A stretch of DNA of 64,000 nt from an uncultured Pleurocapsa sp. (GCA_965365755.1 CBDUCX010000001.1:3162-67161), one strand, 5' to 3'; numbered from the stretch's first letter, positions 2,031 through 21,448 are shown. The notes: generated from the letters alone by a model not told the origin. Numbers and translations: made by a program.

Positions 2031-3962
2031 CTAGTCGAGCAGTTGAGTTAGTATTTGCAGAAAATTACTGACATCTAGAGGTTTGTTTATATGACAATCG
2101 AATCCTGATGCCAGGCTTTTTTGACGCTCGGCATCGGAAGCATAAGCTGAAAGAGCGATCGCCTTGAAATTTCCTTTTTGAATTGTCGGTAATTTTTTTA
2201 CTCTTTTAATTAACTGATAACCATCCATACTAGGCATCCCAATATCACTGACTAAAATATCGGGTTGAAATTGCTCGATTGTGCTTAAAGCCTCGGTTGC
2301 TGAGACTGCACTTTTAGTCCTTACACCTTCATTTTCTAAAATAAATAGTACTAAATCCCTGGAACTATCATCATCATCAACTACCAATACTTTAAGACCT
2401 GCCAAATTTTTGGTGGTTGAAGATAAATTATTGGTCGATTCTAATTCATTATTGGCATCTAGTGCTGGTAAAGCAAAGATAAAAGTTGCTCCTCGATCTA
2501 CTCCAAGACTATCTACACTGATAGTTCCTCCATGCAGTTCTATTAAATGACGCACGATTGCCAGTCCTAATCCCAATCCTCCTTTAGCTCTGGTTTTAGC
2601 ATTTTCTGCCTGACGAAAATAATCAAAAACATAGGGTAAAAAGTCTGGTTCGATTCCTTTTCCTGTATCTTTAACTTGTACTCGAACTTGATTATTGATA
2701 AAAGTTAGGTTAATATCAACCCTGCCACCATTAGGAGTAAACTTAATCGCATTAGTTAGCAGATTCCAAATTACTTGTTGTAGTCGAGTAGAGTCTCCAA
2801 AAACTAAATCTTCATTGCTAGAGAAATTGGTGTTGATTTGAATTGATTTAGCCTGTGCTGCTAATTTAACCGTATCTAGAGCATTATTAATAACGGTGCT
2901 TAATTTAACTGGTGCAGCTTGCAGTTCAATTTTCCCGCGAATAATCCGCGAGATGTCTAAAATATCTTCTATCAATTGCGATTGCAACATAGCGTTGCGT
3001 TGAATAATGTCTGCCCCTTTCTTGATTTGCGCTTCGCTAAGAGTGCCACTTTGTAATAATTGCGACCAACCAACAATAGGATTTAAAGGAGTTCTCAGTT
3101 CGTGGGAAAGAATGGCTAAAAACTGATCTTTAGCGCGATTAGCTGCTTGCGCCTCTTCTAAGAGTTTGGCTCTTTCTGATTCAGCTTGTTTAATGTGGGT
3201 AATATCTCGCAGGGATAGGATATAAGCGTTTTTTCCTTGCCAGCGAATTTGACTGACTCGCATTTGTGCCACTAAATTTCGTCCCGAACTTTGCCGAAGA
3301 TCTACTTCTACATAATCACCATTAACAACAGGAAAACCTAAAGGTTCGCCAATTAATTCTGCCTCCGATTTACCAAAAAGTTGTAGTGCTGCGGGATTAA
3401 TAAACCGAACTATTCCGCGATCGCTTACTACAAGAATGCCATCAGCATTGTCTGTAATTAGTTGTTGTAGTTGTTGTTCTGTTTGAGCGGTGCATTGTGC
3501 TAAATGAGAACAAGTATTTGGTTTGGCTAAGGCTTGGGTAACTGCTGTGGGTAATTGCTCTAAATCCGTTGCAGGGATGTAGTCGGTTGCTCCTGTTTTG
3601 ATTGCTGCTACCGCTTGAGAAATGCTAGCTGCACCATTTACTACTAGCATGGGAATATCTAAATTATTGACTAACAACAGGTCAATTGCTTCTGCTAAAG
3701 ACAGTTGATTAGAATCAGCATCATAGAGAATTATATCAAATTGGAACCCAAGAGATTGTTCGTATTCTTCTTTAGTTGCTACTTGCTGCCAATTAATCGT
3801 CAATGACCCTTGACTGAGAAATGACCCTTGACTGAGAATAGAAGCGATCGCTGTTGTGGCAGCAGAGGAATCAGACACAATTAAGACCGCGATCTTATCT
3901 AAGCTAGATTCAGGCGATCGAGGCAGTTTAGCTAAATTGTTTTTTTCTTTTGATACTTTCAT
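2031..3962 (-). CDS. Hybrid sensor histidine kinase: atypical REC - PAS - HisKA - HATPase - REC
   Basis: H-box LSHELRTPL, N-box NLLTNAIKFT, G-boxes DTGKGI and GGLGLGL. C-terminal receiver with VDDD, SDIGMP and NKP is intact. N-terminal receiver lacks the conserved Lys (DYIPA). Confidence 0.9.
   Translation of the reverse strand: MKVSKEKNNLAKLPRSPESSLDKIAVLIVSDSSAATTAIASILSQGSFLSQGSLTINWQQVATKEEYEQSLGFQFDIILYDADSNQLSLAEAIDLLLVNNLDIPMLVVNGAASISQAVAAIKTGATDYIPATDLEQLPTAVTQALAKPNTCSHLAQCTAQTEQQLQQLITDNADGILVVSDRGIVRFINPAALQLFGKSEAELIGEPLGFPVVNGDYVEVDLRQSSGRNLVAQMRVSQIRWQGKNAYILSLRDITHIKQAESERAKLLEEAQAANRAKDQFLAILSHELRTPLNPIVGWSQLLQSGTLSEAQIKKGADIIQRNAMLQSQLIEDILDISRIIRGKIELQAAPVKLSTVINNALDTVKLAAQAKSIQINTNFSSNEDLVFGDSTRLQQVIWNLLTNAIKFTPNGGRVDINLTFINNQVRVQVKDTGKGIEPDFLPYVFDYFRQAENAKTRAKGGLGLGLAIVRHLIELHGGTISVDSLGVDRGATFIFALPALDANNELESTNNLSSTTKNLAGLKVLVVDDDDSSRDLVLFILENEGVRTKSAVSATEALSTIEQFQPDILVSDIGMPSMDGYQLIKRVKKLPTIQKGNFKAIALSAYASDAERQKSLASGFDCHINKPLDVSNFLQILTQLLD
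3802..3837. repeat. In-frame 18-bp tandem duplication inside the kinase N-terminal receiver
   Basis: AATGACCCTTGACTGAGA x2, encoding LSQGSF-LSQGSL. Confidence 0.9.
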
Positions 3963-4056
3963 CTCAAATTGCTCAAAAATCCCTAAAATCTGCTATCAAC
4001 TCCCTAGCTAACAATCTCTTATCATCAACTACCTACTACCCATTACCCACTACCTA

Positions 4057-5580
4057 TTACCCATTACCCTCATTCAATAAATCGTTTAACCGATCCAATT
4101 CATCTGCATCCACAAAAGTAGGATTGCCTGCCAAAATCCCCGTAACATTGCGAAATGCCTGACCCAAGTGCATTCCATCCTCGTCGATAAAAAACTCGCG
4201 AATATCTTTATCATGTTTAGAACCACGCATTTTCAAAACTGCCAATCCTCGTTTAATTTCTCCATATACTTCAACGTAGCGCAATAAAATAATTAAATCT
4301 GTATTGGTAGAAATATTTGATTCGGTAATTGACTCGCTGCCAATGAGATTAGCAGTATTGGCAGTACCCAAAGCAGTAATTCCTTGTTCTTTGAATAGAG
4401 TGTTTAGAGTCAATAAAAATTCGCGAAAGCTTTTTAAGGATGAAACTCGCTCTAAGGCAGAGATACTATCGATCGCCACTCTCTGGGGCTGAAATTGCTC
4501 GATTTCTGCTTTGATATTAATAAAATGGGACTCTAACCCCACTAATTCGGGATAGCGACAGATGATTTTTAGTTTCCCTGCTTGTTCCATCTGTTCAAAG
4601 TCTATCCCCCAACCCAAGGCGTTACGCAGTATTTGTTCGCGACTTTCTTCAAACGCAAACAGTAAACATTTTTCGTCGTTTTTCACCCCTCCTGCAATAA
4701 ATTCTGTTGCCATTAGGGTTTTACCCGTTCCCGTTGCTCCCGACAATAAAATAATCGAACCTTCAAACCAGCCACCCCCACACATATCATCTAGATCGCG
4801 ACTACCAGAAGTAATGCGATGTCTAGAAGATTTGCGTTTAAAAACATCTTTGGAGAAAGGAATAGCCACGATACCCCGTTGGGACATAATGGCAAAAGGA
4901 AATTCCCCACTTTGGTGGGAAACACCACGAAACTTAAGAATTTCAACGGTACGACGACGCTTTTCTTCGCTGAGGGCATTACGCATCAAAATCACGTTAT
5001 CAGCGACAAATTCTTCAATACCGTAGCGACTAATATCTCCATAATCAGAAGTACGTTCCGAAGTTAAAATTGCCGTAATATTCATTTCTCGAATCACCTG
5101 CGCCAGCCTAAATAAAGTTGCTCTCACCTGACCGATATCTGGCACGTAACTAAAAATTGCTCCCAAAGAATCCATAGCTACTCGCTTGGCATTAACTTGC
5201 TCGATCGCATAACTAAGACGTGATATTAAAGGATCTAGATCGTATTCACCACTAACTAAAGGCATATCTCGGTCTAACGGAGAAGCATCGACAAAATACC
5301 ACTTATTTTCTGCTTCCCACTGGGCAATATCCCAGTTAAAACCGCGCATATTCTTTCGTAGCATTTTAGGCGGTTCTTCAAAAGAGACAAACACGCCATT
5401 TTGTCCCTGATTAATTCCTTCAGCTAAAAATTGAGTAGCAAAGATCGTTTTCCCACTACCAGCAGTTCCTGAAATTAGAGTGGTTCTTCCTTCTGGCAAT
5501 CCTCCTTCAGAAATTACGTCAAAACCAGGTATTCCTGTAGCAATTTTAACTAACCGATCTTGTTCTTGAGCTTGGTTCAT
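4057..5580 (-). CDS. kaiC3: Circadian clock protein KaiC, KaiC3-like
   Basis: Two RecA-like domains: GTAGSGKT/SFEE and GATGTGKT/AFEE. Phosphosite pair ST retained (ISTNTD). Context with kaiA3/kaiB3-like genes. Confidence 0.85.
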   Translation of the reverse strand: MNQAQEQDRLVKIATGIPGFDVISEGGLPEGRTTLISGTAGSGKTIFATQFLAEGINQGQNGVFVSFEEPPKMLRKNMRGFNWDIAQWEAENKWYFVDASPLDRDMPLVSGEYDLDPLISRLSYAIEQVNAKRVAMDSLGAIFSYVPDIGQVRATLFRLAQVIREMNITAILTSERTSDYGDISRYGIEEFVADNVILMRNALSEEKRRRTVEILKFRGVSHQSGEFPFAIMSQRGIVAIPFSKDVFKRKSSRHRITSGSRDLDDMCGGGWFEGSIILLSGATGTGKTLMATEFIAGGVKNDEKCLLFAFEESREQILRNALGWGIDFEQMEQAGKLKIICRYPELVGLESHFINIKAEIEQFQPQRVAIDSISALERVSSLKSFREFLLTLNTLFKEQGITALGTANTANLIGSESITESNISTNTDLIILLRYVEVYGEIKRGLAVLKMRGSKHDKDIREFFIDEDGMHLGQAFRNVTGILAGNPTFVDADELDRLNDLLNEGNG

Positions 5581-5655
5581 TAGGAATTTTATATCAGCAG
5601 TGAGTTTGGAATACTTATAGATTAATAATCAAGTTCTAGTAGAATTAAAGAAAAG

Positions 5656-5937
5656 TCAAGTTTTAGGGGAAAGGTCAAGGGCAAAGTAAAGCACTTCTCG
5701 ATTGGAAAGATCGCCAATAATCCTTTCTTGGGGTAAGGGTAATTCTTTTACTAAAGTAGGAGTAATTAAAATTTTTTCGGCTTCGGCAATTTCGGGGAAT
5801 TTAAGTAAATCGACAATCTGAATCTGGCTATTTTGTGGCAATTCGCGATCGCAAAATTCCTGCAAGTTAGCGATCGCCCGCCGACTTCGGGGGGAGTCTC
5901 CACTGACATATAGTTTCAAAATATATTTTTGACACAT
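5656..5937 (-). CDS. kaiB3: Circadian clock protein KaiB, KaiB3-like
   Basis: YILKLYV.G.SPRS..AI.NL, TPTLVK.LPLP..RIIGDLS motifs. Confidence 0.85.
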   Translation of the reverse strand: MCQKYILKLYVSGDSPRSRRAIANLQEFCDRELPQNSQIQIVDLLKFPEIAEAEKILITPTLVKELPLPQERIIGDLSNREVLYFALDLSPKT

Positions 5938-5990
5938 TAATTAAAAAGAGTTATTAAAAGATGTTGGCAAATGCCAGTTGAGTATACATC

Positions 5991-6866
5991 TTAATTTGTA
6001 GGAGAAATGTCTTGGTAGCTAGAAGCCAAGTTAATTTTGTTTAATCCAATATAATACCGACGATAGTAAGCAGCCAATTTCCCCATCGACTCTAGCAATA
6101 AATAACGTCCTTCAATGGTATAGACTCGGCTTTTACGTTGACCCAAATCCTGTTGTTTTTGTTTTAATAGATTGGTATGGAGCGAGAGCAAATCTTTAGG
6201 TGTGGCTTGGAGATAACCCAATTGCTCGATGAGAACGTTAAGGCGGTCGTTAATATTATGCTCTACTTTATAAATTTTTTGTTCTACTACGTGATCGAGT
6301 AAAGTGTTATATCTTGCTTCTAATTCCTTAAACACATCAGGCATCCTTTGTTGTAGAGAATCAGTATATTGATTGTGAAAACTATTATCGTCGCTCAATA
6401 AACTTTCTAATACATCAAATTCTTGCTTCTGCTGTTGTTGTTGAGATTGCTCTAAATTAGCCAACTGCCATTGTCGCTCGATCGCAGCACGAATAGCGTA
6501 CAAGAGTAAATCGCGATCGGAGGATACTTTAGGCAGGTAGCCACAAGCTCCCATTTCTAAAGCTTTAACTGCCACTACCTCGTCTTCCAAAGCAGTCTGC
6601 ACGATGATAGGTGTCTGCGATGTTTCTGCTTGCACTAACTCTAAGCTATTTAGATAACGACTGTCGGGCAGCATCAGATCGAGTAAGATGACATCAAATT
6701 CCTGTTGGGACAATATTGGTTTGGCTGCCGATAAGGTTTCGGCACAAGTCAATTCAAATCCACGCTTAAAAAAAGCCGAACGAGTATCTTCTAGGATATT
6801 GCGGATATTTGCTATGTCATCTGGTTCATCTTCGATTAGTAAAACTCGACAAGGAGAATTTAACAT
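5991..6866 (-). CDS. kaiA3: KaiA3-like chimeric protein: N-terminal receiver plus KaiA-like helical C-domain
   Basis: Canonical receiver (IEDE, LLDLMLP, QTA, YLPK). C-domain ..YKVEHNI..LGYL.ATPKD..H..EGRYLLLE.MG.L..YYR resembles Synechocystis Sll0485. Directly upstream of kaiB/kaiC. Confidence 0.75.
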   Translation of the reverse strand: MLNSPCRVLLIEDEPDDIANIRNILEDTRSAFFKRGFELTCAETLSAAKPILSQQEFDVILLDLMLPDSRYLNSLELVQAETSQTPIIVQTALEDEVVAVKALEMGACGYLPKVSSDRDLLLYAIRAAIERQWQLANLEQSQQQQQKQEFDVLESLLSDDNSFHNQYTDSLQQRMPDVFKELEARYNTLLDHVVEQKIYKVEHNINDRLNVLIEQLGYLQATPKDLLSLHTNLLKQKQQDLGQRKSRVYTIEGRYLLLESMGKLAAYYRRYYIGLNKINLASSYQDISPTN

Positions 6867-7501: not shown

Positions 7502-7918
7502 ATGAATAACCAGAACAAATTAACAAAGATTTTTCAACAATTAAGGCTTAGTAGAATTGTCACTGCTTTTCTTTTAGCAACAGTTTTATTAATAACCACA
7601 GCCTGTAATAGTGGCGATAAACTCGCTGCGCGTCCTCATAATTCTTCTGTTACCCCTACTTTATTAGCAACAGCTAATCAAAGCGAAACCACCTATCCCA
7701 ATGACGATCGACAAATGGAAGGTTTGCTTTATTCAAATTCCAATGAAGTGAAATCTTTAAATAGTGTCGATGATTTTGTCAGTCCCCAAAGACAAAAAGA
7801 ATTATTAGACCCCACCCAAATTCCTGCTAAGAAACAGCCAATTATCGACCGCTCCGATCCTAATAACAAGCTTTTGGAAAAAACCGTACAAATGTTTAAG
7901 GATGCTACCGATTTTTAA
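7502..7918 (+). CDS. Hypothetical lipoprotein (stress/desiccation-associated type)
   Basis: Signal peptide with lipobox LITTAC and hydrophilic body. Confidence 0.6.
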   Translation: MNNQNKLTKIFQQLRLSRIVTAFLLATVLLITTACNSGDKLAARPHNSSVTPTLLATANQSETTYPNDDRQMEGLLYSNSNEVKSLNSVDDFVSPQRQKELLDPTQIPAKKQPIIDRSDPNNKLLEKTVQMFKDATDF

Positions 7919-7990
7919 CCGCGGAATGCGGTCAGCGCAGGCACCGTCGTTTCATATGGGTCGCGGTATCCTCTAGGACGGCGGTGTAAC
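7919..7990. repeat. GC-rich imperfect hairpin, probable REP-like dispersed repeat
   Basis: Nested stems GTCAGCG/CGCTGAC and CACCGTCGT/ACGGCGGTG. Core ATGGGTCGCGGTATC resembles the elements at 14507-14544 and 37284-37329. Confidence 0.5.
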
Positions 7991-8039
7991 GCTGACTAAC
8001 CAAATAGATGTGTAATTGTAAATAAGGAAAGAAACAACT

Positions 8040-8603
8040 ATGTCACAAGAATTACAAGGTATTAATATTGCCATTTTACTCACCGATGGCTTTGAACAGG
8101 TTGAGATGACTAAACCTCGCCAAGCATTTAACGATGCAGGTGCAAGTACCTATTTAATCTCTCCTGCGGGAGAACAAGTACAAGGATGGAATCACTACGA
8201 TAAAGGCGATCGCTTTAAAGTCGATCTCCCTTTAGATAAGGCTAATCCCGATGATTATGATGCGCTGCTACTTCCTGGTGGGGTAGCTAATCCAGACCAA
8301 CTAAGAACTAATGAAACAGCCGTTAAGTTTATTAAAGCTTTTTTTGAAGCAGATAAACCAGTGGCAGCCATTTGTCATGGTCCTTGGACTTTAATCGAAG
8401 CGGAAGTAGTTAAAGGACACAAGATTACATCTTGGTCTTCCTTAAAAACCGACCTCATCAATGCAGGTGCCAACTGGGTAGACGAAGAAGTAGTGGTAGA
8501 CGGTAATTTAATCACCAGTCGCAACCCTAACGATCTGCCCTGGTTTATCAACGCGGCGATCGCTTTATTTTCTAGCCAAAAAGCCAGACTTCAATCTGTT
8601 TAG
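8040..8603 (+). CDS. pfpI: PfpI/DJ-1 family glyoxalase/deglycase (YhbO-like)
   Basis: DGFEQVE, LPGG..NPD.LR, AICHGPW and SRNPND motifs. Confidence 0.9.
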   Translation: MSQELQGINIAILLTDGFEQVEMTKPRQAFNDAGASTYLISPAGEQVQGWNHYDKGDRFKVDLPLDKANPDDYDALLLPGGVANPDQLRTNETAVKFIKAFFEADKPVAAICHGPWTLIEAEVVKGHKITSWSSLKTDLINAGANWVDEEVVVDGNLITSRNPNDLPWFINAAIALFSSQKARLQSV

Positions 8604-8951: not shown

Positions 8952-11315
8952 CTATTTCGGCAAGTAAACTATAAAAGTAGCTCCCTGTTGAGGTTGACTG
9001 CAAGCTACAATTTTACCCTGATGGCGTTGAACGATCTTGTCACAAATAGCTAAACCCAAACCCGTACCTGCATATTTACTTTGACTATATAGGCGGTGAA
9101 AGGGAGTAAAGATTTTCTCTTGTTGTTCTGGTTCAAAGCCAATACCGTTATCGATAATGTTTATCTGATAAAAGTTATTGTCTGTCGGGCTTTGAGAGAT
9201 TTTAATTTCTGGAGTGCGATCGCTGGCGTGAAATTTGAGGGCATTTTGCAGTAAATTTTGAAATAGCTGTTGTAACTGGGAGCGATCGCCTGTAACGGTG
9301 GGTAATTCCCCAATTTTTATTTGGGCTTGGATACGACTAATTTCTGGTTCGAGATCGTATAAGACATCTTCGACAACATCTTTAAGGGATACTGGGGTAA
9401 AAGGCTGTGCTTGGGTAGTGATGCGAGCGTAGGTTAATAAGTTGACAATCAACGCTTTCATTCTTAAATTTAAGCCAGTCATTTTGGTTAAATATTCTCT
9501 GCCTTCTTCGTCTAAAACTGCACCGTAATCTTCTTGTAGAGATTCAATAAATAAATTTTGTTTGCGTAGGGGAGAAATCAAATCGTGAGATACCACACTG
9601 GCAAATTCTTCTAATTCCTGATTACTGCGTTCGAGTTCTTGTAATAAAGCGTTTAATTTAGCTTCAGCTTGTTTACGTTGGTTGATATCTTGAATTTGGG
9701 CAATAAAATATAGCGGTTTGTCTTCAATATCTTTAACCAGAGAAACGCTCAATAAAATCCAAATCCAACGACTAGAAGCCTGAAGATAGCGTTTTTCCAT
9801 TTGATAAGTACGAATTTCTCCCGCCAGCATTTGTCGCACATAATTAAGATCGAGGTCGAGATCGTCGGGATGGGTAATTTCCTGAAAAGTTTTTTGCAGT
9901 AATTCTGCTTCACTGTAACCGACAATTTCGCACAAAGAGCGATTAACTTTAATAAACCTCCCGTCAGGAGAAACTAATGCTTCTCCCGTAGCAGCATCTT
10001 CAAAGGCTAGCCGAAATCTTACTTCACTTTCTCGCAACTTGGCTTCTATTTCTTTGAGGATGGTAATATCTCGCCCTACCGCTTGATATTCGCTAATTGC
10101 TCCTGCTTTATCCAATATTAGCCGATTGTTCCATTGATTCCAACGCACCTTGCCGTTGACCCACACCCGATGGGTAATAGTTACGGTGGGATTAGTTAAG
10201 CTCATGGAGTTAATCTTTTGAGTGACTAGATCGCGATCGCGATCATAAATTAGAGGCGCAAATGGGCGATCAACTAATTGCTCTTTTTTTACCCCAAAGT
10301 AGCGACAGTAAGCTTCATTGACAAAAGAAATCGTGGAATCTGGACGATAGCGACAAATTAGTTCGGTTTGATCTTCCACAATTGCCCGAAATCGTGTTTC
10401 GGCTTCTAGTAAATTGGCATATAATTGCTGTCGCTTGCGATCGCTTTGATTTAATTTCCGAGCCATCCACCAGACAAGAAAGCTTAAAATCAATATTTCT
10501 AGAGTAATTGTGAGAGCGATCGCTATTTCCGAAGCTTGAGGCATATCTGGCACAAGCCACCAAATCAAACCACCTAGCACAGGAGGAACAATTATCATCA
10601 GAGGCAATAACCAACGAGCCATCACCCCCCCTGCTTCTTTTCTGGTCAATACTCGCATCCAACCCCTTTCTGAACGAGTAGCCAGCAAAGCACCAGACAA
10701 CAAAAGAAAGCCAATACTAGTGTGAATTGCCACCCCTGTGGACGAACCAGCAGTATAGAGGAGACGGACATAATAGAGATGTCCGATTAGACTAGCAGCA
10801 GCGATCGCTAAAATGCCAATTATTAATAGTTGAGCAGTTAAATAATATTCTCGAACTAAACATAAAATTGCCGTATTCAGTAGTAAAAATCCCCAAGCGG
10901 TGGGAGGCGACATTCTACCTCGAACTACCGCATCTATTGCATCGGGAGAATCGGGCAAGGCAAGCCAACTTGTACCTAAATCGAGGTTAAAACCATATTC
11001 AATTAAAGTTATTAAACTAAAAGCGATCGCGATACTAGGTAAGAGATACAAGGCAACTCTAACAATTACACGCTGATTCTTTTGCTGTTGATGCCATAAC
11101 AGTAAAGCAATTCCCCCCATGATCAAACCAAGAGCGGTACTAACTTTCATGGTTACCCGATGGGCAATAATGCTTTTGAGCCAAGTTATGTCAAACAGCC
11201 AACCCACAATGACACTACTGCCTAAACAAATAACAATCATACAGATAATTATCGACGCATAACGTAGTTGACTGGGTAATTTAGCTGCTTGCGATCGCTT
11301 TTGGATGAGGGACAT
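8952..11315 (-). CDS. Orphan membrane sensor histidine kinase: multi-TM - PAS - PAS - HisKA - HATPase
   Basis: Several N-terminal hydrophobic helices. PAS motifs (FVNEAYC; THPDDL). H-box VSHDLISPLR, QNLLQNALKF, DNGIGF and GTGLGLA. Confidence 0.9.
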   Translation of the reverse strand: MSLIQKRSQAAKLPSQLRYASIIICMIVICLGSSVIVGWLFDITWLKSIIAHRVTMKVSTALGLIMGGIALLLWHQQQKNQRVIVRVALYLLPSIAIAFSLITLIEYGFNLDLGTSWLALPDSPDAIDAVVRGRMSPPTAWGFLLLNTAILCLVREYYLTAQLLIIGILAIAAASLIGHLYYVRLLYTAGSSTGVAIHTSIGFLLLSGALLATRSERGWMRVLTRKEAGGVMARWLLPLMIIVPPVLGGLIWWLVPDMPQASEIAIALTITLEILILSFLVWWMARKLNQSDRKRQQLYANLLEAETRFRAIVEDQTELICRYRPDSTISFVNEAYCRYFGVKKEQLVDRPFAPLIYDRDRDLVTQKINSMSLTNPTVTITHRVWVNGKVRWNQWNNRLILDKAGAISEYQAVGRDITILKEIEAKLRESEVRFRLAFEDAATGEALVSPDGRFIKVNRSLCEIVGYSEAELLQKTFQEITHPDDLDLDLNYVRQMLAGEIRTYQMEKRYLQASSRWIWILLSVSLVKDIEDKPLYFIAQIQDINQRKQAEAKLNALLQELERSNQELEEFASVVSHDLISPLRKQNLFIESLQEDYGAVLDEEGREYLTKMTGLNLRMKALIVNLLTYARITTQAQPFTPVSLKDVVEDVLYDLEPEISRIQAQIKIGELPTVTGDRSQLQQLFQNLLQNALKFHASDRTPEIKISQSPTDNNFYQINIIDNGIGFEPEQQEKIFTPFHRLYSQSKYAGTGLGLAICDKIVQRHQGKIVACSQPQQGATFIVYLPK

Positions 11316-12296: not shown

Positions 12297-13673
12297 CTAC
12301 TTTCCGATACAGAAGCGGCTAAAAATTCGGTCTAGTACAGATTCCGTGACTTCTTCTCCCGTAATTTCTCCTAGAGCTTGAATTGCGCCCCTGAGGTCAA
12401 TTGTCCAAAAATCCAACGGCAGTTGATTGGCGACAGTTTCTTGTACTTGTTCTAAGGCTACTTTAGCCCTGGTTAAAGCAGATGCCTGTCTTTGATTAAC
12501 TGCCACTTCAGAGTTAGCTGCCGTAACTGATCCCTGACGAGTTAAGGAAAGAATCTCTGTTTCTAAATCCGTAATCCCCTGATTATAGGCGGCACTAGTG
12601 TAAACTACCTGCTGGATCTCTGGGGGGTATTTAACCGACTGGGGAGAAGCTAAATCGGCTTTATTGATTACCAGAATTAGAGGGTAATTTTTGACCTGCT
12701 CATATATTTCCCAGTCGGCAGTTGTCCAGCCCAGTTGAGCGTCAACGGTTAATAAGACTAAATCTGCCGTTGCTGCTGCGTCACGCGATCGCTCTACTCC
12801 AATTTTTTCTACAGTATCGGCAGTTTCTCTAATCCCTGCAGTGTCTAATACTTGGACGGGAATTCCCCCCACAACCAAAGTGGACTCAATCACATCACGA
12901 GTTGTCCCTGGAAGATCGGTCACGATCGCGCGATCGCTTTTACTCCAAGCATTAAGTAGGCTAGATTTCCCAACGTTAGGACAGCCGACAATCGCCACTT
13001 TTAAGCCATTTCTCAATAATTCTCCTTGTTCTGCCGTAGCTAAAATATGTTCAACTTTAAGCAATACTTGCTGTAGTTGCTGTTCAATTTCTGCTTCATT
13101 TAGAGGTGGAAGATCGTCAGCAAAATCAATTCTGGCTTCCACTTCCGCTAAAATATCCAAGCAAACATTTCTCAAATCGCGAATGGGACTGCCTAGTTTG
13201 CCCTGTAAACCAGCTAAAGCAACTTGCGAGGCGGCTTGTGATTGAGCAGATACTAATTCCGCAATACTTTCAGCTTGAGTTAGATCAATTCTACCGTTAA
13301 GGAAAGCTCTTAGACTGAATTCCCCTGGTTGAGCTAATCTCGCTCCTTGAGTAACGCACAGTTGCAAAACTGATTGCACCGCAATAATCCCACCGTGGCA
13401 GTGAAATTCCACTACATCTTCACGGGTAAAAGAACGGGGTTGTAGCATTAAAAGTAATAATGCTTCGTCTACCACCTGTTTCGTTTCAGGATGACGAACA
13501 TAACCATAAAGAATGCGATGAGTTGACCATTCCTGCTTTCCTGGAGAGTGAAATAGGGTTTTAGCGATCGCCAGAGACTTGGCTCCTGATAAGCGCACAA
13601 TACCGACACTACCCTGCTGTGGCATGATAGCAGTGGCGATCGCAACTATGGTTTCTCCCTGAACTAAAGACAT
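12297..13673 (-). CDS. mnmE: tRNA modification GTPase MnmE
   Basis: [27 protein letters not shown] and C-terminal FCIGK. Confidence 0.97.
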
Positions 13674-13913
13674 TGAAAAGGCTTGATATATGGGCTTCGT
13701 CTATATTAACTTGACTTGTTCGAGCTATCAGCCATAAACCGATGAATTCACATTATTAGAAATGTTCCTATTGGGGAAGAATTTTGATCAATGGCAGGTT
13801 GAATATTCCAGCATCCAGACCGCGATTACCCTCTCAAAGCATTTAAGATAGATAGAATCAATAGTACTATTTTATAGCCTATAATTTAGGTACTAGTATC
13901 TAGTCTAATTACT

Positions 13914-14147
13914 ATGCCTCAAATAAAAATTGTTCTCAATGAAACCGAAACTAATTTTATCAAAAACTATTCCCGATATGGGTTCAAAAGCAAAACTGCA
14001 TTAGTTAACGAAGCTGTATCTGCATATCGTAAGCAATTACGAGAGAAAGCAATTGCGGAATCTGCCGATCTCTATCAAGAAATCTACGAATCAGATCAAG
14101 AACTTCAAGAATTAACTGACGATGCTGCTGGTTTATGTCTGGAGTAG
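13914..14147 (+). CDS. Antitoxin (ribbon-helix-helix type) of a MazF/PemK pair
   Basis: 77 aa acidic ORF overlapping the downstream toxin. Palindrome AATAGTACTATT at 13860-13871 is a candidate operator. Confidence 0.7.
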   Translation: MPQIKIVLNETETNFIKNYSRYGFKSKTALVNEAVSAYRKQLREKAIAESADLYQEIYESDQELQELTDDAAGLCLE

Positions 14148-14506
14148 GAAACTTTCGTCCCAAACGAGGGATCATTGCCGACTTTAATTTAGATCCCACA
14201 AAAGGTAGTGAGACAGGTAAGATTCGACCATGCATTATAGTTTCCAATGATATTTACAATCAAAAACTAAGTGTCATTCAGGTTGTCCCAATTACTCAAT
14301 GGTCAGAAAAAAAAGCTAGGATTATTACCAATGTACTACTCAATCCCAGCAAAGAAAACGGACTAGCGAAAAAGTCGATTGCTGACTGTTTACAAACTCG
14401 TCCCATAGATTATCCTAAACGTTATGTTAGTCAGCGTGGTCAACTCAATGAGCAATTGCTACTAGAAATTGACGAAGCATTAAAAATAATTTTTGCCCTT
14501 GAATAG
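14135..14506 (+). CDS. mazF: MazF/PemK family endoribonuclease toxin
   Basis: LDPTKGSETGKIRPCIIVSND..N and VVPIT motifs. Confidence 0.9.
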   Translation: MSGVGNFRPKRGIIADFNLDPTKGSETGKIRPCIIVSNDIYNQKLSVIQVVPITQWSEKKARIITNVLLNPSKENGLAKKSIADCLQTRPIDYPKRYVSQRGQLNEQLLLEIDEALKIIFALE

Positions 14507-14544
14507 TTCAGGCGATCCGAAGGCTACGGGTCGCGTAATCGCTA
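14507..14544. repeat. REP-like hairpin repeat downstream of mazF
   Basis: GCGATCCG-AAGGCTA-CGGGTCGC stem followed by GTAATCGCT. Confidence 0.6.
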
Positions 14545-14604
14545 ATCTAAAAACGATTAAAATTCAACAACTATGATCGCTAAATCTTCAAACTCTTAGC
14601 TAGT

Positions 14605-14919
14605 TTAGCTCGCAGGTTGAGCCAAGAGAGGATCTAACTCATTTTTAGCATCCAAATCATAGAGATCATCACAACCTCCCACATGACGATCATTGATAAA
14701 AATCTGGGGTACAGTTCTCTTGCCATTTGCTCTGTTCGCCATATTATTGCGGGCGTTGTCGTTGCCATCAATCTTATACTCAGTAAAATCGACTCCTTTC
14801 CACCACAAAAGTAGTTTGGCACGGATACAGAAAGGGCAGGTAGCCCAAGTATAGATCTCAACCTTAGCTTTGATGCGTTCTGGATGGCGGTTGAGAATGG
14901 GATTGAGAAAATCTAGCAT
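14605..14919 (-). CDS. grxC: Glutaredoxin 3
   Basis: CPFC active site, TVPQIFI and GGCDD motifs. Start placed at MLDFL. Confidence 0.92.
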   Translation of the reverse strand: MLDFLNPILNRHPERIKAKVEIYTWATCPFCIRAKLLLWWKGVDFTEYKIDGNDNARNNMANRANGKRTVPQIFINDRHVGGCDDLYDLDAKNELDPLLAQPAS

Positions 14920-15005
14920 AATTAAGAAATGCGATCGCAAACTTGAAGATTGGGTCTGATCTTTAGATGATAATATATTTCGTGATATTCAGAGCGTAAC
15001 TAACA

Positions 15006-15929
15006 ATGGACTTCACCGCTATATTACCAACATTTATTGTCACCTTACGAGAAGGATTTGAGGCGGCTTTAGTTGTCGGGATAGTCATGGCTTGTCTGAA
15101 GAAAGCAGGACAAACACAACTCTATCGCTGGGTTTACTTGGGAATTTTGGGGGGAATTATTGCTAGTATTGCCGTCGGTTTTTTATTAACTGGTTTGGTG
15201 TCTGGTGTAGAGACTGCGGGAGGAATTTATGCTTCTGTAGTTAAACAGTTACTAGAGGGGATTTTTGGCTTAGTGGCGATCGCTATGCTCAGTTGGATGC
15301 TGCTGTGGATGACTAAACAGGCAAAATCTCTCAAAGGAGAGGTAGAAGGAGCAATTAGCTCGGCTTTAAGAGATGATAGTGCTGGAAAGGCAACATTTCT
15401 CTTAATCTTTATTGCAGTGGTGCGAGAAGGTTTTGAAACGGTCTTATTTATTTTGGCCAAGTTTCAGCAGGATTGGACATTACCCGCTGTGGGTGCAGTG
15501 GCGGGTTTATCTCTCGCTAGCATTATGGGAGTAGCTTTGTTTTCCTTGGGAGTACGAATTAATATTCGTCTCTTTTTTCAGGTGATGGGAATATTTTTAT
15601 TATTAATTGTCGCTGGTTTAGTCGTGGGTGCATTGAAGCACTTTGATACTGCTTTGACTTTATTAAATCAACTAACTCTTAATCAGCTATGTTTATTTAA
15701 TAATGGCTCTTGCATTCTCGGTACTCAGGTGTGGGATGGTTCTAATCTATTACCTGACAAAGAATTTCCAGGTATTATCTTAAAAGCTTTGTTTGGCTAC
15801 CGACAAACTTTATATCTCGTACAGATTATTGCCTATTTTTCTTTTCTGTTAGTAGTTGGCACTGCATATTTTCGGAGTCTTGGTATCAAGTTGTTCTTGA
15901 ATAATCAACAATCAACTTCTTCTTCTTAA
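15006..15929 (+). CDS. ftr1: FTR1/EfeU family iron permease
   Basis: Two REGFE motifs and multiple TM helices. Confidence 0.92.
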   Translation: MDFTAILPTFIVTLREGFEAALVVGIVMACLKKAGQTQLYRWVYLGILGGIIASIAVGFLLTGLVSGVETAGGIYASVVKQLLEGIFGLVAIAMLSWMLLWMTKQAKSLKGEVEGAISSALRDDSAGKATFLLIFIAVVREGFETVLFILAKFQQDWTLPAVGAVAGLSLASIMGVALFSLGVRINIRLFFQVMGIFLLLIVAGLVVGALKHFDTALTLLNQLTLNQLCLFNNGSCILGTQVWDGSNLLPDKEFPGIILKALFGYRQTLYLVQIIAYFSFLLVVGTAYFRSLGIKLFLNNQQSTSSS

Positions 15930-16294
15930 ACTCTGATGTTAGCCAATACAATGAACGATACAAACAAATACAAATAAGTTATTCCCTCTTTATTTCTAAT
16001 TCAGAACTCCGAACTCTATTTCCCCAGTTTGTATTAAGCAATGTAACAAAATTGCAGAAAATTCATACTTAGTCGAGATAGATCAAAAGAAGCTTACAAA
16101 GAAATATTTGTAGGTGGCTAAAATACGATCGCTTTTATCTATTTCCTCTAGCTCTGGGGCGATCGCTTTTCTGGAAATTTCTGTAACCGAATCATAGGTA
16201 GGATTTTACGAAATTGGTTGAATAAACGGCACATGATCTCTTCATCAGAAATAGATAGGATTAGCAGCAAGTTAACTAATTCAAAACTTAAGAT

Positions 16295-16774
16295 TCACTC
16301 CAGAGGATCGCAACGAATTTCAACAATAAAGCCGTCAGGATCATAAACATAAAACCCTCTACCAGTCAGACGAGTTACCACATCTATTGCCACAGGAACT
16401 TGCAGTTGTTTTAAAGTTTGTACCGCCTGATCAAATAGCTGAGGAGCGATATCGAATGCTAGATGATTAGCACGGGTAAACTGTTTCTCTGGATCAGAAT
16501 CGGGGGGGGATAAATCGGGTTCGGCAAATAAATCCAGAATTATACCGTCAGGAGTTTTAAAATTACAGACTTTTCCTGCTGCAACTAACTCTACTAAAGT
16601 AGATGGCACTTCTTTCCCCACTAGCTGATGCAAACCCAAAATACTGCCATAAAAAAGCTTTGATGCCTCCATATCCTTGACATTCAAAGCAATATGATGC
16701 ACTTTCCTCAAAGTACCAACTGCTAACCCCTGAGACAATTGTTTTTGAAGCTGTTCCTGAAGCATAGCTACCAA
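16295..16774 (-). CDS. VOC/glyoxalase family protein
   Basis: HHIALNV, HLAFDI and YVYDPDG..VEI motifs. Confidence 0.85.
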   Translation of the reverse strand: MVAMLQEQLQKQLSQGLAVGTLRKVHHIALNVKDMEASKLFYGSILGLHQLVGKEVPSTLVELVAAGKVCNFKTPDGIILDLFAEPDLSPPDSDPEKQFTRANHLAFDIAPQLFDQAVQTLKQLQVPVAIDVVTRLTGRGFYVYDPDGFIVEIRCDPLE

Positions 16775-16815
16775 TCCCTGTTGACTGTTACTGTTAAATG
16801 CTAAATGCTAACTGA

Positions 16816-17031
16816 TTAACGTAATTCTACACGATGGGTTGTTCCCGCAATGGTAACGCGATCGCCTGTAACTAATTTGCGTCCTCGTCTCGTTTCTTCT
16901 TCTCCGTTTACCTCAACCCCTCCCTGTTGGATCATAATTTTAGCTTCGCCTCCAGTTTGGGCAATTCCTTGCCATTTAAGAAACTGATCGAGTTTGATAT
17001 ATGATTTTGATTTTAATGTTGAATCATTCAT
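16816..17031 (-). CDS. S4-like RNA-binding protein (YaaA type)
   Basis: IKLDQFLK..TGGEAK..V.VNGE.ETRRGRKL. Confidence 0.88.
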   Translation of the reverse strand: MNDSTLKSKSYIKLDQFLKWQGIAQTGGEAKIMIQQGGVEVNGEEETRRGRKLVTGDRVTIAGTTHRVELR

Positions 17032-17118
17032 GAGTTTTTGAAAGGATAAAACTTTTTAAGCTTTTTATATAAAGGGAGACTATCTATAAATTTATCTAGG
17101 TTGCTAATATTAGCACTA

Positions 17119-17476
17119 ATGCCAAAAGATATTGCCAAATTAATTCCCAATGCAGAAAATGCAGCTGTTGATATTCGCAAGTTGCGGGATTATTGTCTCA
17201 ATTTAGAACATAGTACAGGTAAACATAAAGCGCGACTTTTTCTTTCTACGCTAGGGATGACGGCAGAGAATGCGCCTGAGTTACGTCAAATTTTGCTAAA
17301 AAAAAATTATTACAACCTATCCAGCTAAGCTGGGAAGAAAAGACACATTTGGACAACGTTATACTCTAGATTTTATCTTGGAATGGCAAAATAAAAAGAT
17401 AGTCATTCGCAGTGGCTGGATTATTGAAAGTGATTCATCAATTCCCCACTTGACCAGTTGCTACCCTCTCACATGA
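17119..17476 (+). pseudogene. DUF6883-like protein, frameshifted at an A9 run
   Basis: KLRDYCLN.EH..GKHKARLF in frame 0. After A9 (17298-17306) the +1 frame continues ITTYPAKLGRKDTFGQRYTLDF..IRSGWII..PHLTSCYPLT*. Confidence 0.7.
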
Positions 17477-17497
17477 GCCTTGGAGGTAAACCTAAAA

Positions 17498-17715
17498 ATG
17501 ACAACCAAAAATATTAAACTCCTTGATGTAGTGGCATTAACAGTTAATCTCCCCAAAGACAATCTTTGGCGGGGTCAAGTTGGAACTATAGTTAAAATTT
17601 TGGTGATAAACAAGGACGCACTTATGAATCTTTGGGTTTGCTTCCCGAACAGTTTATGGTGTTACAATTTGAGCCAGCTAGCCCCAATTCCCAATCTGAG
17701 ATGGCGACAGTGTAA
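17498..17715 (+). pseudogene. DUF4926 protein with internal deletion and frameshift
   Basis: IKLLDVVAL..LP..NLWRGQVGTIV then a jump at ~17603 into another frame reading DKQGRTYESLGLLPEQFMVLQFEP..*. The usual FEVEF segment is absent. Confidence 0.7.
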
Positions 17716-17764
17716 GTGTATCAGAAATAGTCTAAATGCGATCGCAGGATCTTGAATTTTAATT

Positions 17765-18268
17765 TTATTTCTTACCTTGAACTTGTTTAACTAAATGGTT
17801 TAATTCGGGCAAAATTAGCTGATTCATGGCTAATTTTACGGCATTAGAAGATCCAGGCAAGGAAAAGATCAATTTTTGGTTTTTTACCCCAGCTACAGCG
17901 CGAGAAGCGATCGCTCTGGAGCCAATTTCCTGATAGCTTAAATAGCGAAATATTTCCCCAAAACCAGGAATAGTCTTATCCAACCAGTTGCTAATCACGT
18001 CGTAGGTTGTATCTCTGGGGGCAATTCCCGTTCCACCATTAAAAATGATTGCTGACAGTTCAAATTGATAGTCACAATAGGTCAACAAATCCTGAATCTG
18101 TTTTGGCTCGTCCTTGACAATGCTATAGAACCAGATTTGATGTTTCGCATCTGATAATAATTGCTTGATTATTTGACCACTTTTGTCAGTCTCTGGAGTA
18201 CGAGTATCACTGACGGTGATGATGGCGCATTTAACGGCAATATCTTGAGAATCTGGGTGAGGAATCAT
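17765..18268 (-). CDS. moaB: MogA/MoaB molybdenum cofactor biosynthesis protein
   Basis: IITVSD.R..D.SG, NGGTG..RD.T and SLPGS motifs. Confidence 0.9.
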
Positions 18269-18465
18269 GGGAGGAGAGATATCGCAGTACGTTAACTGGT
18301 TAGGACAAGTTTAGTTAATTGCTCGTAAGTAACAAGTAGCATGTGTCCTAATGTAACTGCCTATTGCTATATTATCGGGAAATTTCAGTTATATTCAACG
18401 CAATTTCCCGAATTTTATAAATTATCCTGATTTATTAATATCTAGAATTAATTAAGATTTAAGAT

Positions 18466-18792
18466 TTACTTAGCTAAGCCGTGTTGTTCGGCGTATTTAT
18501 TCATAAAGCGAACAAAACGTTCAAACTCATCGGCTGATTTCATAATTAACACAGCTTCAATAGCTCTCGCCTCGCCATTGATAAATTTGCCTTTGACTTC
18601 TTTACTAAAAATCTCTCCTTCATCGTCAATTAGGTACATACCAGTTATTTCATCACTGCTCTCTTTACTCAGAATTTTGGGGTCTTCAAAATAAAAAGTA
18701 GCAGTCCCAGTGTTTCCTGTTTTCGACCGAGTAACTCTGACATCAGGAACTATATCTTCGGTTACACCTCTAGCAAATTGAATTTCTGCCAC
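18466..18792 (-). CDS. psb28: Photosystem II assembly factor Psb28
   Basis: AEIQF.RG..E...PDVR.TRS and RFM..YA motifs. Confidence 0.93.
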
Positions 18793-18938
18793 TTTTAAAA
18801 CCCCTTTTCTTTACAATCTGTTAATAACTCTTAATCATCTCATAAATTAAGGACGAGCATACGGATTTATGACAATTCTACTGAAGATTTTTTTCAACCG
18901 AAGAATATTAGCTCGCGATTGATCCCAATTGATCCCGG

Positions 18939-20048
18939 TTAATTCAAAGCCTCTGCCGTATCAGGTGATTGTGCCAATTCTTCCAGTCTGTCCTGTTGAT
19001 CTTGGGAAATACAGGATTGAATCATGACATCAATATCTCCTTCCAGGGAATTAGCCAAAGGAAAGTTTTTCCCCAGACGATGATCGGTAATGCGGTTGTC
19101 CTTATAATTGTAGGTACGAATTTTTTCCGATCGCGCGCCTGTTCCTACCTGGGATAATCTTAAGCCTCTCACTTCTTTTTGCTGTTCTGCCAGCTTAATC
19201 TCATAAAGTTTGGCTCTGAGAATTTGCATCGCTCTTTCTCTGTTTTGTAGTTGCGATCGCTCTTCCGTACAGAAAATTCTGATTCCTGTAGGCTTGTGAA
19301 TCAAATCTACCGCAGTTTCTACCTTGTTAACATTTTGTCCCCCAGCACCACCAGAACGAGCTGTTTTTAGCTCGATATCTTTAGGATCTATTTCAACCTC
19401 TACGTCATCTACCTCTGGCATTACGGCTACTGTGGCAGTGGAGGTATGAACTCTCCCACCTGCTTCCGTTTGTGGCACCCGCTGCACCCGATGAACCCCT
19501 GCTTCAAACTTGAGCTTACTATATACCGAGTCTCCTGTGACTTCCAGAATCGCTTCTTTAAAACCACCCATCTCTGCTGCTGACTCACTGAGCAGAAACA
19601 CTTTCCAGTTTTGACTTTCGGCATACCGAGAGTACATCCGCACTAAGTCCCCCGCCCAGATACTCGCTTCATCACCCCCTGTTCCCGCACGAATCTCTAG
19701 CATGATGTTCTTATCATCATTAGGATCACTGGGTAATAACAGAACTTTGAGTTTCACTTCTAACTGTTCAATCTGCTCTTCCAATTCACTAGCTTCTAAA
19801 CTAGCCATTTCTTTCATCTCAGGATCATCAGCTTCCTTAAGAATTTCCTTGGCTTCAGCTAATTCCTCAGTCGCCTCCTGCCATTTGTGGTAGGTAATGA
19901 CAGTTTCTTCCAAAGAAGAACGAGCTTTGGCTATTTTTTGTAGTTCATCAGGATTAGTGGCAATATCAGGATCTGCCAAACGATGAGTAAGTTCCTGGAA
20001 AGTTTGTTCAACGGATTTTAGTTTGTCTAATAAGTATGCTTCTGCCAT
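18939..20048 (-). CDS. prfA: Peptide chain release factor 1
   Basis: GGQ motif (GAGGQNVNK) and P.T recognition loop (VPQTE). Confidence 0.97.
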
Positions 20049-20095
20049 TGGTTTTCTCCGATTACACTAGAGTGGTCTACTAAAAAAACATCAAA

Positions 20096-20150
20096 ATACA
20101 GCAAACCCAGCAGTCAATCTAAACTAACTACTGGGTATATATTCTGTATC
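20096..20150 (-). terminator. Probable intrinsic terminator downstream of rpmE
   Basis: Minus strand: CCCAGTAGTTA/TGACTGCTGGG stem, outer ATACAG/CTGTAT, then a T-rich tract. Confidence 0.5.
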
Positions 20151-20156
20151 AAATGG

Positions 20157-20950: not shown

Positions 20951-20953
20951 GTT

Positions 20954-21406: not shown

Positions 21407-21448
21407 ATTCCGTGATAATATTGTGTGGATTATTTTAAATAAAGAGGT

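Follow-up and report, generated by a model that had tools for sequence, protein, structure and literature searches.

The KaiA3-KaiB3-KaiC3 system of Synechocystis sp. PCC 6803 has been shown experimentally to be a second Kai oscillator (PMC11372060). Its output components and the cognate kinase of the KaiA3 receiver are described as unidentified in the literature we searched (PMC11372060 and a 2026 preprint), and the synteny and co-occurrence analysis of PMC11372060 stops at the three kai genes and states that no further clock component co-occurs. The canonical clock provides three precedents for proteins that contact the oscillator. SasA is an output histidine kinase that binds KaiC through an N-terminal KaiB-like thioredoxin-fold domain, CikA is an input/output kinase-phosphatase that reads GAF-HisKA-HATPase-pseudo-receiver and binds KaiB through its pseudo-receiver, and KidA, a PAS-GGDEF-EAL protein with four PAS-like domains that was found through pull-down, binds fold-switched KaiB through its PAS domains (PMC9478674). 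Here, we analyzed a 64,000-nucleotide stretch of DNA from an uncultured Pleurocapsa sp. (GCA_965365755.1 CBDUCX010000001.1:3162-67161; hereafter the window), in which a kaiA3-kaiB3-kaiC3 cluster, in the contiguous order that PMC11372060 reports for most carriers other than Synechocystis, is followed by a hybrid histidine kinase. An earlier note had proposed that this kinase is a candidate dedicated input/output partner of the KaiC3 oscillator. Our analysis supports this proposal, and we found no description of the kinase, or of a second kinase upstream of kaiA3, in the literature searched.

We first confirmed the gene arrangement. Four co-oriented open reading frames lie on the minus strand: kaiA3 (5991-6866, 291 aa), kaiB3 (5656-5937, 93 aa), kaiC3 (4057-5580, 507 aa) and the hybrid histidine kinase (2031-3962, 643 aa). 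The intergenic gaps are 53, 75 and 94 nt, one less in each case than the 54, 76 and about 95 given in the note. The kaiC3 product scored above both curated cut-offs (NF006799, 666 bits against 408; TIGR02655, 564 against 546) and had two Pfam KaiC hits. Alignment to a solved KaiC (8zn5) revealed Walker A motifs in both halves (GTAGSGKT and GATGTGKT), both EE pairs (SFEEPP and AFEESR) and the phosphosite string SITESNISTNTD (SITESNIST; the T426, S431 and T432 equivalents). Its assignment as KaiC3 rests on adjacency to kaiA3 and kaiB3 and on orthology of the cluster to that of Stanieria PCC 7437, which PMC11372060 lists as a KaiA3 carrier. The kaiB3 product matched Pfam KaiB (78 bits against 27) and fell below the cut-offs of the NCBIfam KaiB equivalog models (86 against 110; 79.5 against 145), which fits a divergent KaiB. 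The gene is present in 45 of 45 compared loci.

The first gene of the cluster encodes a canonical receiver (Response_reg, 60 bits; residues 8-121), in which D63 (DVILLDLMLPD), the T of IIVQT and the K of YLPK are invariant or nearly so in 16 orthologues. Its identity as kaiA3 rests on two findings. First, the protein is 57% identical at full length to a Stanieria PCC 7437 response-regulator protein of 293 aa whose gene lies three genes upstream of the kinase WP_015193212, a position that fits WP_015193209, listed as a KaiA3 orthologue in Supplementary Data S1 of PMC11372060. Second, its C-terminal 125 aa, which include a putative KaiA-like helical domain (about residues 176-280), gave matches that are specific in rank but weak in score. 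The top three PDB hits of the profile were KaiA C-terminal domains (E about 0.05), followed by RsbU-N, and the only Pfam hits were RsbU_N and KaiA (E about 0.03), both below the curated cut-offs (14.8 bits against 22.2 for KaiA).

The kinase reads degenerate receiver, short PAS, HisKA, HATPase, canonical receiver. The kinase core (2463-3134, minus strand) comprises HisKA/DHp (residues 277-340; 56 bits) and HATPase (residues 389-500; 105 bits), and the H-box SHELRTPLN (H287) is invariant in 31 orthologues. The C-terminal receiver (2037-2393, minus strand; residues 524-642; 90 bits) has the full set of active-site residues (D530, D531, D573, S605, K627) and is complete in 29 of the 31. By contrast, the N-terminal receiver-like domain (3525-3896, minus strand; residues 23-146) has an incomplete phospho-acceptor pocket (S30, D31, D81, N109, A131). 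As the note had stated, DIILYD (residues 76-81) keeps the Asp and DYIPA (residues 127-131) has Ala where the conserved Lys should be; in addition, the Thr/Ser site is Asn109 and the first acidic residue is Ser30. However, retention of the Asp holds for this sequence and not for the family: that column is D in 24, E in 4 and H in 3 of 31 sequences, and Y or G in two further loci. None of the 31 orthologues has a complete set, as the first acidic residue is never present, the Thr/Ser site is Asn in 27 and the Lys is missing in about 24. An AlphaFold2 model of the domain (pLDDT 90.6) predicts a (beta-alpha)5 receiver fold with a TM-score of 0.76 to solved receivers. Foldseek did not single out the CikA or KaiA pseudo-receivers, with KaiA-N ranking 36th and CikA absent from the top 50. 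In sequence, the domain is a paralogue of the KaiA3 receiver (27% identity, E 8e-6, hhalign probability 97.5) and is closer to it than the kinase's own C-terminal receiver is. The best sequence-profile match in the PDB for the N-terminal region was Leptospira LvrB (8vc9), a REC-HisKA-HATPase "hybrid response regulator" with no link to Kai proteins, whose deposited structure is titled as a phosphorylated REC form, so its receiver accepts phosphate. A perfect 18-nt tandem duplication (3802-3838) adds LSQGSF to the alpha1-beta2 loop of the pseudo-receiver. The insertion was seen against all orthologues in the alignment and is unique to this genome, and pLDDT is low at residues 49-51.

The kinase differs from both canonical clock kinases. 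SasA is not a hybrid kinase and is not encoded next to kaiC, and the NCBIfam model that we take to be the SasA model (PRK09303, NF006800; named only "histidine kinase") scored 137 bits against a cut-off of 342 and matched only residues 228-503. Unlike CikA, the kinase has no GAF hit, its degenerate receiver is N-terminal and a canonical receiver ends the protein.

To test whether the kinase is stably associated with the kai3 genes, we surveyed gene neighborhoods. Starting from KaiA3, the kinase orthologue was found to follow kaiC3 in Pleurocapsales-like and Coleofasciculus genomes. Starting independently from the kinase's own N-terminal region, 35 of 38 cyanobacterial loci carried kaiB3/kaiC3, directly upstream wherever mapped, compared with 2 of 64 control loci picked up by their similarity to KaiA3's receiver domain alone (Fisher 2e-21). 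The kinase orthologue lies immediately 3' of kaiC3, on the same strand, in Pleurocapsales, Coleofasciculaceae, and Nostocales of the Rivularia/Calothrix and Scytonema/Tolypothrix/Brasilonema groups, although kinase identity to the window is only 43-60%. The arrangement also holds in the complete genome of Stanieria cyanosphaera PCC 7437, with a 24-nt gap, and other carriers include Calothrix parasitica NIES-267 and Scytonema strains that keep kaiB3-kaiC3-kinase with no kaiA3 detected upstream. In the 94-nt kaiC3-kinase spacer of the window (3963-4056, minus strand) we found no terminator-like hairpin or strong promoter-like site on the coding strand; a 7-nt repeat array (4028-4069) overlaps the kaiC3 stop. 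Linkage is not universal, however. The kaiA3B3C3 clusters of Lyngbya, Hormoscilla, Limnospira and a Pseudanabaenaceae MAG have no adjacent kinase, a Waterburya locus has only kaiA3-kaiB3, and two kinase orthologues have no kai neighbors. No orthologue was seen in Chroococcales, including Synechocystis, but these scans depended on exact peptide patterns and do not establish absence.

The survey also revealed a second kinase that is part of the conserved block and that the note had not included. HK2 (8952-11315, minus strand) is a 787-aa membrane sensor histidine kinase with about 290 aa of multi-TM N-terminus of no known family (the N-terminal 300 aa match no Pfam family), two PAS domains, HisKA and HATPase, and no receiver. 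Orthologues at 43-63% identity lie directly upstream of kaiA3 on the same strand in most genomes, and HK2-like kinases also sit there in two Chloroflexales loci and in Stanieria. In one related locus, the HK2 match ends 145 nt before kaiA3. In the window, HK2 and kaiA3 are separated by two opposite-strand genes (7502-8603, plus strand; DUF6658 at 7502-7918 and DJ-1/PfpI at 8040-8603). This separation occurs in this genome only; neither gene was found in any of 44 related loci, and they are not part of the system. Of all ORFs in 22 kb of the window, only the five genes from HK2 to the hybrid kinase are shared with the other loci, and no other gene family is shared across lineages.

The most conserved and probably decisive element of the kinase is the short PAS domain (3198-3503, minus strand; residues 154-255) and not the receiver-like domain that the note had emphasized. 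In the window it carries the motifs NADGI-VV, GIVRF-NPAA, LGFPV, EVD, VAQMRV and SLRDIT. Relatives carrying the same PAS domain sit next to kaiA3B3C3 in at least five other phyla, among them Chloroflexota, Acidobacteriota, Verrucomicrobiota and Latescibacterota. Directly after kaiC3, the PAS is attached to different effectors: REC-PAS-kinase in two Chloroflexales loci, Moanabacter and Latescibacterota; PAS-hybrid kinase in two Blastocatellia loci; REC-PAS-GGDEF in an Anaerolineae locus; and PAS-GGDEF-EAL in a further locus (designated L139 in our set). The last two have a layout comparable to that of KidA. The PAS also follows kaiC relatives (52% identical to KaiC3) in Longimicrobium (kaiB-kaiC-PAS kinase) and Magnetococcales. 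Furthermore, Chloroflexaceae and Oscillochloris encode REC-PAS-PAS-KaiA3(C-terminal domain) fusions carrying this same PAS, at loci that include L139. The PAS is 41-50% identical between the window and other phyla and 50-69% among those phyla. This is comparable to KaiB3 (47-58%) and well above the rest of the kinase (27-33% in tblastn matches that include the PAS, for the REC-PAS-kinase type; the Blastocatellia hybrids are 44-45%). The AlphaFold2 model predicts a short PAS without the usual F-alpha helix, which we infer suits a protein-contact role more than a cofactor pocket.

Collectively, these data are best explained by a five-gene signaling module built around the second Kai oscillator, in which KaiA3B3C3 is the timer and the downstream hybrid kinase is a dedicated partner and most likely its read-out. 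We hold this model with moderate confidence; co-transcription, docking, the direction of signal flow and the downstream acceptor are inferred, and output is favored over input only by comparative evidence. In this model, the N-terminal pseudo-receiver and short PAS would dock on a Kai component, with fold-switched KaiB3 on KaiC3, or KaiC3 itself, as the likeliest target. Docking would depend on clock phase and gate autophosphorylation at H287, and the phosphoryl group would pass to the kinase's own C-terminal receiver (D573) and from there to an Hpt protein or response regulator encoded elsewhere. That no Hpt protein or terminal response regulator is encoded in the conserved block counts against the model. 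HK2 would be the likelier donor to the intact receiver of KaiA3 (D63), that is, the more classical candidate for the input side.

An alternative that we consider less likely is that the hybrid kinase itself acts on the input side, with the pseudo-receiver-PAS module sensing a metabolic, redox or light-dependent cue and the kinase phosphorylating D63 of KaiA3 to set its activity and entrain the oscillator. The KaiA3 receiver has all its catalytic residues, and in the Chloroflexaceae fusions the same PAS lies N-terminal to the KaiA-like domain, the usual position of a sensor, which fits an input role equally well. The pseudo-receivers of KaiA and CikA in the canonical clock may likewise serve as input sensors. 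However, the kinase has its own intact receiver, the usual first acceptor, and the position of the non-hybrid HK2 directly upstream of kaiA3 in most genomes is the classical kinase-regulator pairing. In other phyla the same PAS drives GGDEF or GGDEF-EAL effectors, which cannot phosphorylate KaiA3, and the Scytonema-type loci retain the kinase with no kaiA3 detected upstream. A branched phosphorelay, in which HK2 phosphorylates both the KaiA3 receiver and a still-working, atypical N-terminal receiver (D81) of the kinase independently of docking on Kai proteins, is improbable. It draws on the paralogy of the two domains, on the retention of D81 in 24 of 31 orthologues and on non-cyanobacterial loci in which the equivalent domain is 34-44% identical to the KaiA3 receiver and, in two of them (Moanabacter and Latescibacterota), the visible motifs for the acidic pair, Asp, Thr and Lys are all present. 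The incomplete pocket of the cyanobacterial orthologues argues against it, and the equivalent Asp is also lost in some non-cyanobacterial homologues (G in the Anaerolineae locus, A in one of the Chloroflexales loci). Finally, although several kaiA3B3C3 loci lack the kinase and UniRef automatically names the Scytonema hofmannii orthologue "Circadian input-output histidine kinase CikA", a functionless neighbor retained through inherited gene order, or a simple CikA orthologue, is contradicted by the neighborhood statistics, the lack of conserved flanking genes, the recurrence of the association in unrelated phyla with domain shuffling and fusion to KaiA3, and an architecture that is not that of CikA.

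The KaiA3B3C3 system is an established second oscillator without identified output components, and this locus and its relatives supply two conserved candidates, an upstream membrane kinase and a downstream hybrid kinase, together with a sharply defined PAS domain that follows the kai3 genes across phyla. More tentatively, this domain of roughly 100 aa (NADGI-VV, GIVRF-NPAA, FGFP, E-D, AEMRV, SLRDIT) could be a dedicated docking module for KaiB3/KaiC3, conserved from cyanobacteria to Chloroflexota, Acidobacteriota, Verrucomicrobiota, Latescibacterota and Gemmatimonadota, that plugs the timer into interchangeable effectors: a His-Asp phosphorelay, c-di-GMP enzymes, or the KaiA domain itself. That would define the missing output (and sequestration) interface of the second Kai oscillator and would give a general rule for how non-canonical Kai timers are wired into cell physiology. 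The locus and its relatives also suggest how Kai-based timers outside cyanobacteria are connected to c-di-GMP and two-component signaling.

To define the locus, we first examined the open reading frames and their family assignments. On the minus strand lie four co-oriented ORFs, at 5991-6866 (291 aa), 5656-5937 (93 aa), 4057-5580 (507 aa) and 2031-3962 (643 aa), separated by gaps of 53, 75 and 94 nt. Family scans identified the first as a receiver-domain protein, the second as a KaiB, the third as a KaiC that scores above both curated NCBIfam cut-offs, and the fourth as a hybrid histidine kinase with two Response_reg stretches, PAS, HisKA and HATPase_c. Alignment of the KaiC to a solved KaiC revealed both Walker A motifs, both EE pairs and the SITESNIST phosphosite string. 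We refer to it as KaiC3 based on its genomic context rather than on a tree. The first protein is a KaiA3. Its receiver keeps D63, the Thr and the Lys. When its C-terminal 125 aa were searched as a profile, the top three PDB sequences were KaiA C-terminal domains, although only at E about 0.05, followed by RsbU-N. On their own, these residues weakly hit only Pfam RsbU_N and KaiA, the same pair of relatives described for Sll0485 (PMC11372060). Furthermore, the protein is 57% identical over its full length to the Stanieria cyanosphaera PCC 7437 protein P0089 that, by its position three genes before WP_015193212, fits WP_015193209, listed as a KaiA3 orthologue in Supplementary Data S1 of that paper.

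The sequence comes from an uncultured Pleurocapsales-like cyanobacterium whose closest named relatives are Pleurocapsa, Xenococcaceae and Stanieria. The only sequencing runs holding the locus are DNA metagenomes from marine sediment and mangrove, and a search restricted to RNA listed none. A promoter and terminator scan gave counts no higher than in shuffled sequence and nothing in the kaiC3-kinase spacer. The absence of an obvious terminator is therefore only weak evidence for co-transcription. A heptamer array at 4028-4069 (ACTACCC on the plus strand, about 6 copies, also readable as 14- and 21-nt units) straddles the kaiC3 stop codon and the start of this spacer and resembles the short tandem heptamer repeats known in cyanobacterial genomes. 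The rest of the window (12297-27176 and 45531-47522) is ordinary chromosomal context, with mnmE, an FTR1 iron permease, prfA-like release factor, truA, rpoA and secY, as well as a stand-alone polyketide-type ketosynthase ORF with a CurL-like C-terminal linker (45531-47522). No other kai, sasA or cikA-like gene turned up among the window ORFs scanned, only some of which were checked, and Rfam and tRNA scans of the window found nothing.

We next analyzed the architecture of the kinase. An AlphaFold2 model built on 31 orthologues (mean pLDDT 77.7) predicts a (beta-alpha)5 receiver fold at residues 23-146, a short PAS at 154-253 with only two small helices and no F-alpha helix, the DHp helices at 255-342, the catalytic domain at 350-500 and a second receiver at 524-642. 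The N-terminal domain, modelled alone (pLDDT 90.6), superposes on ordinary receivers at TM about 0.76. However, its active site is degenerate. In the window, the residues are S30-D31, D81, N109 and A131, where a receiver has an acidic pair, Asp, Thr/Ser and Lys. Across 31 orthologues the first acidic residue is never present, the Thr/Ser site is Asn in 27, the Lys is missing in about 24, and the Asp column is D in 24, E in 4 and H in 3. Two further loci have Tyr or Gly at the Asp position. By contrast, the C-terminal receiver has the full set in 29 of the 31. The earlier note, which described an atypical N-terminal receiver that keeps the Asp but lacks the conserved Lys, is thus right for this sequence, and pseudo-receiver is the right word for the family. 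The domain is nearer to the KaiA3 receiver (27% identity, E 8e-6, hhalign probability 97.5) than is the kinase's own C-terminal receiver, which gives E 0.18 against the KaiA3 receiver. We found no specific structural kinship with the CikA or KaiA pseudo-receivers: generic receivers rank first, KaiA-N ranks 36th and CikA is not among the top 50 matches. Accordingly, a CikA-type pseudo-receiver is retained only as a functional analogy and not as a homology claim. Finally, a perfect 18-nt tandem duplication inside the kinase gene (3802-3838) duplicates LSQGSF/LSQGSL in the alpha1-beta2 loop of the pseudo-receiver and is absent from all orthologues aligned.

To investigate whether the linkage is conserved, we surveyed gene neighbourhoods from the kaiA3 side and from the kinase side. 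Starting from kaiA3, two scans of one genome per GTDB species gave 23 loci with a KaiA3 match beyond the receiver domain. The kinase orthologue follows kaiC3 in Pleurocapsales-like MAGs (loci L001 and L004), in ten Coleofasciculaceae genomes, one of them cut by the contig end, and in one unclassified cyanobacterium, and it follows as a truncated copy in locus L012 (12802-13386). It is absent after kaiC3 in Lyngbya, Hormoscilla, Limnospira and a Pseudanabaenaceae MAG and is replaced by a shorter PAS-kinase in two other MAGs, while Waterburya has only kaiA3-kaiB3. We then performed a scan seeded only by the pseudo-receiver-PAS region of the kinase, which found orthologues in more groups, including Calothrix parasitica NIES-267, many Rivularia, and Scytonema, Tolypothrix, Brasilonema and Iphinoe. 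Of the 38 cyanobacterial loci, 35 carry kaiB3/kaiC3, directly upstream on the same strand wherever mapped. The exceptions are loci L090 and L122; two loci (L110 and L124) keep kaiB3, followed by the kinase, but have lost kaiC3. By comparison, a control set picked up by similarity to KaiA3's receiver domain alone has kai genes in 2 of 64 loci (Fisher 2e-21). In the complete genome of Stanieria PCC 7437, the order is PAS-kinase, KaiA3, KaiB3, KaiC3, hybrid kinase, with a last gap of 24 nt. No orthologue appeared in Synechocystis or other Chroococcales, but the genome scans rely on exact peptide patterns and on one genome per species, so absence is not established.

Importantly, nothing else is shared. 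Of all ORFs in 22 kb of the window, only the three kai genes and the two kinases (the hybrid kinase and a second one, HK2, discussed below) recur in other loci, and all-against-all clustering of 45 loci found no further cross-lineage family, including any Hpt or response regulator. The block is therefore conserved against a background of rearranged flanks, which is the signature of selection for linkage. In a set of Nostocales loci (L093, L096, L102, L106, L107, L109, L114, L117, L118 and L207 from Scytonema, Tolypothrix and Brasilonema, together with L119-L121), kaiB3-kaiC3-kinase is kept but no kaiA3 is detectable upstream of kaiB3, and in L093 there is no suitable ORF within about 1 kb. The kinase linkage therefore outlives kaiA3. 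Some relatives show signs of decay or interruption. In addition to L110, L124 and the truncated kinase of L012, the Xenococcaceae MAG (L004/L088) shows only partial KaiA3 (residues 156-291) and KaiC3 (residues 1-162 and 431-489) matches, and in L113 (7240-9695) kaiC3 is split by about 1 kb of inserted DNA. These could be real decay or MAG assembly artefacts.

We also asked which part of the kinase is most conserved beside the kai genes. An HMM of residues 158-258 found the same PAS domain at high score directly after kaiC3 in other phyla, where the rest of the protein differs. The architectures are REC-PAS-kinase in Chloroflexales (L129/L132), Moanabacter (L136) and Latescibacterota (L143); PAS-hybrid kinase in Blastocatellia (L140 and L203); REC-PAS-GGDEF in Anaerolineae (L127); PAS-GGDEF-EAL in Chloroflexaceae (L139); and PAS-kinase after kaiC relatives (52% identical to KaiC3) in Longimicrobium (L218) and Magnetococcales (L220). 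The Anaerolineae contig L127 (3893-11323) carries kaiA3-kaiB3-kaiC3 followed by three consecutive genes that each begin with a KaiA3-like receiver, two of which carry the signature PAS (REC-PAS-GGDEF and REC-PAS-kinase), and the output side looks expanded here. Of 41 loci ranked below the cyanobacterial orthologues, nearly all non-cyanobacterial, 17 carry kaiB or kaiC within 10 kb, compared to 2 of 64 in the control (p 9e-7). In Chloroflexaceae and Oscillochloris MAGs, the KaiA3 homologue is itself a fusion, (REC)-PAS-PAS-KaiA-like domain, and its first PAS is the same signature PAS (L133 9554-11212; L139 9275-11347; L153 5131-6723; L152 7728-9344; L155 1319-2509; L216; L223). The PAS is 41-50% identical between the window and other phyla and 50-69% among those phyla, compared to 47-58% for KaiB3, 60-62% for KaiC3 and 27-33% for the whole tblastn match (PAS included) of the REC-PAS-kinase type.

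A second kinase, HK2 (8952-11315, minus strand), has an N-terminus of about 290 aa that looks multi-membrane-spanning and matches no known family, two PAS domains, HisKA and HATPase, and no receiver. Its orthologues, or HK2-like kinases, lie directly upstream of kaiA3 in most of the same genomes, including Chloroflexales and Stanieria (L001, L091, L167 and other loci). In this window HK2 is displaced about 2 kb from kaiA3 by two inserted opposite-strand genes (DUF6658 and DJ-1/PfpI, 7502-8603) found in none of the other loci compared. A non-hybrid kinase next to a protein with an intact receiver is the classical cognate arrangement, and HK2 is therefore the better candidate for the unidentified kinase of the KaiA3 receiver.

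The kaiA3B3C3 cluster itself is published (PMC11372060), and the synteny analysis in that paper stops at the three kai genes and reports no further co-occurring clock component. That paper, a 2026 preprint and a 2026 review describe no output route for KaiA3B3C3, and the first two state the gap outright. The Dvornyk and Mei paper on kaiA evolution makes no mention of PAS domains, receivers or kinases, and literature searches turned up no description of the flanking kinases or of this PAS. The hybrid kinase is not SasA, because it has no KaiB-like domain, and it is not CikA, because it has no GAF domain and its C-terminal receiver is canonical. UniRef names the Scytonema hofmannii PCC 7110 orthologue (WP_017743257) "Circadian input-output histidine kinase CikA", but the name appears to be an automatic transfer. 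We regard it as a clock-associated two-component kinase that differs from these in its docking module, itself a hypothesis, and in its architecture.

How might the kinase act? We favor a read-out role, although we consider this reading only about as likely as not. In this model, the pseudo-receiver-PAS module would dock on KaiB3/KaiC3 in a phase-dependent way and gate H287 autophosphorylation, and the phosphate would then pass to D573 and onward to an acceptor encoded elsewhere. Consistent with this idea, the effector varies while the PAS is constant, GGDEF effectors cannot act on KaiA3, the kinase has its own receiver, HK2 is already the better candidate for the input slot, and Scytonema-type loci keep kaiB3-kaiC3-kinase with no kaiA3 detected upstream. 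The proposal that the PAS is a docking domain rests on comparative patterns and analogy alone. Among the precedents are KidA, whose PAS domains bind fold-switched KaiB (PMC9478674), CikA, in which a pseudo-receiver probably binds KaiB, and SasA, which appears to bind KaiC through an N-terminal domain. The main rival, an input kinase for KaiA3, is less likely but possible and is supported by the sensor-like position of the PAS in the Chloroflexaceae KaiA fusions. A working atypical receiver fed by HK2 is unlikely, and a functionless neighbour more unlikely still. A constant, strongly constrained small domain attached to interchangeable effectors and next to the same partner genes is what one expects of a coupling module, and we infer that the downstream kinase is very likely functionally coupled to KaiA3B3C3.
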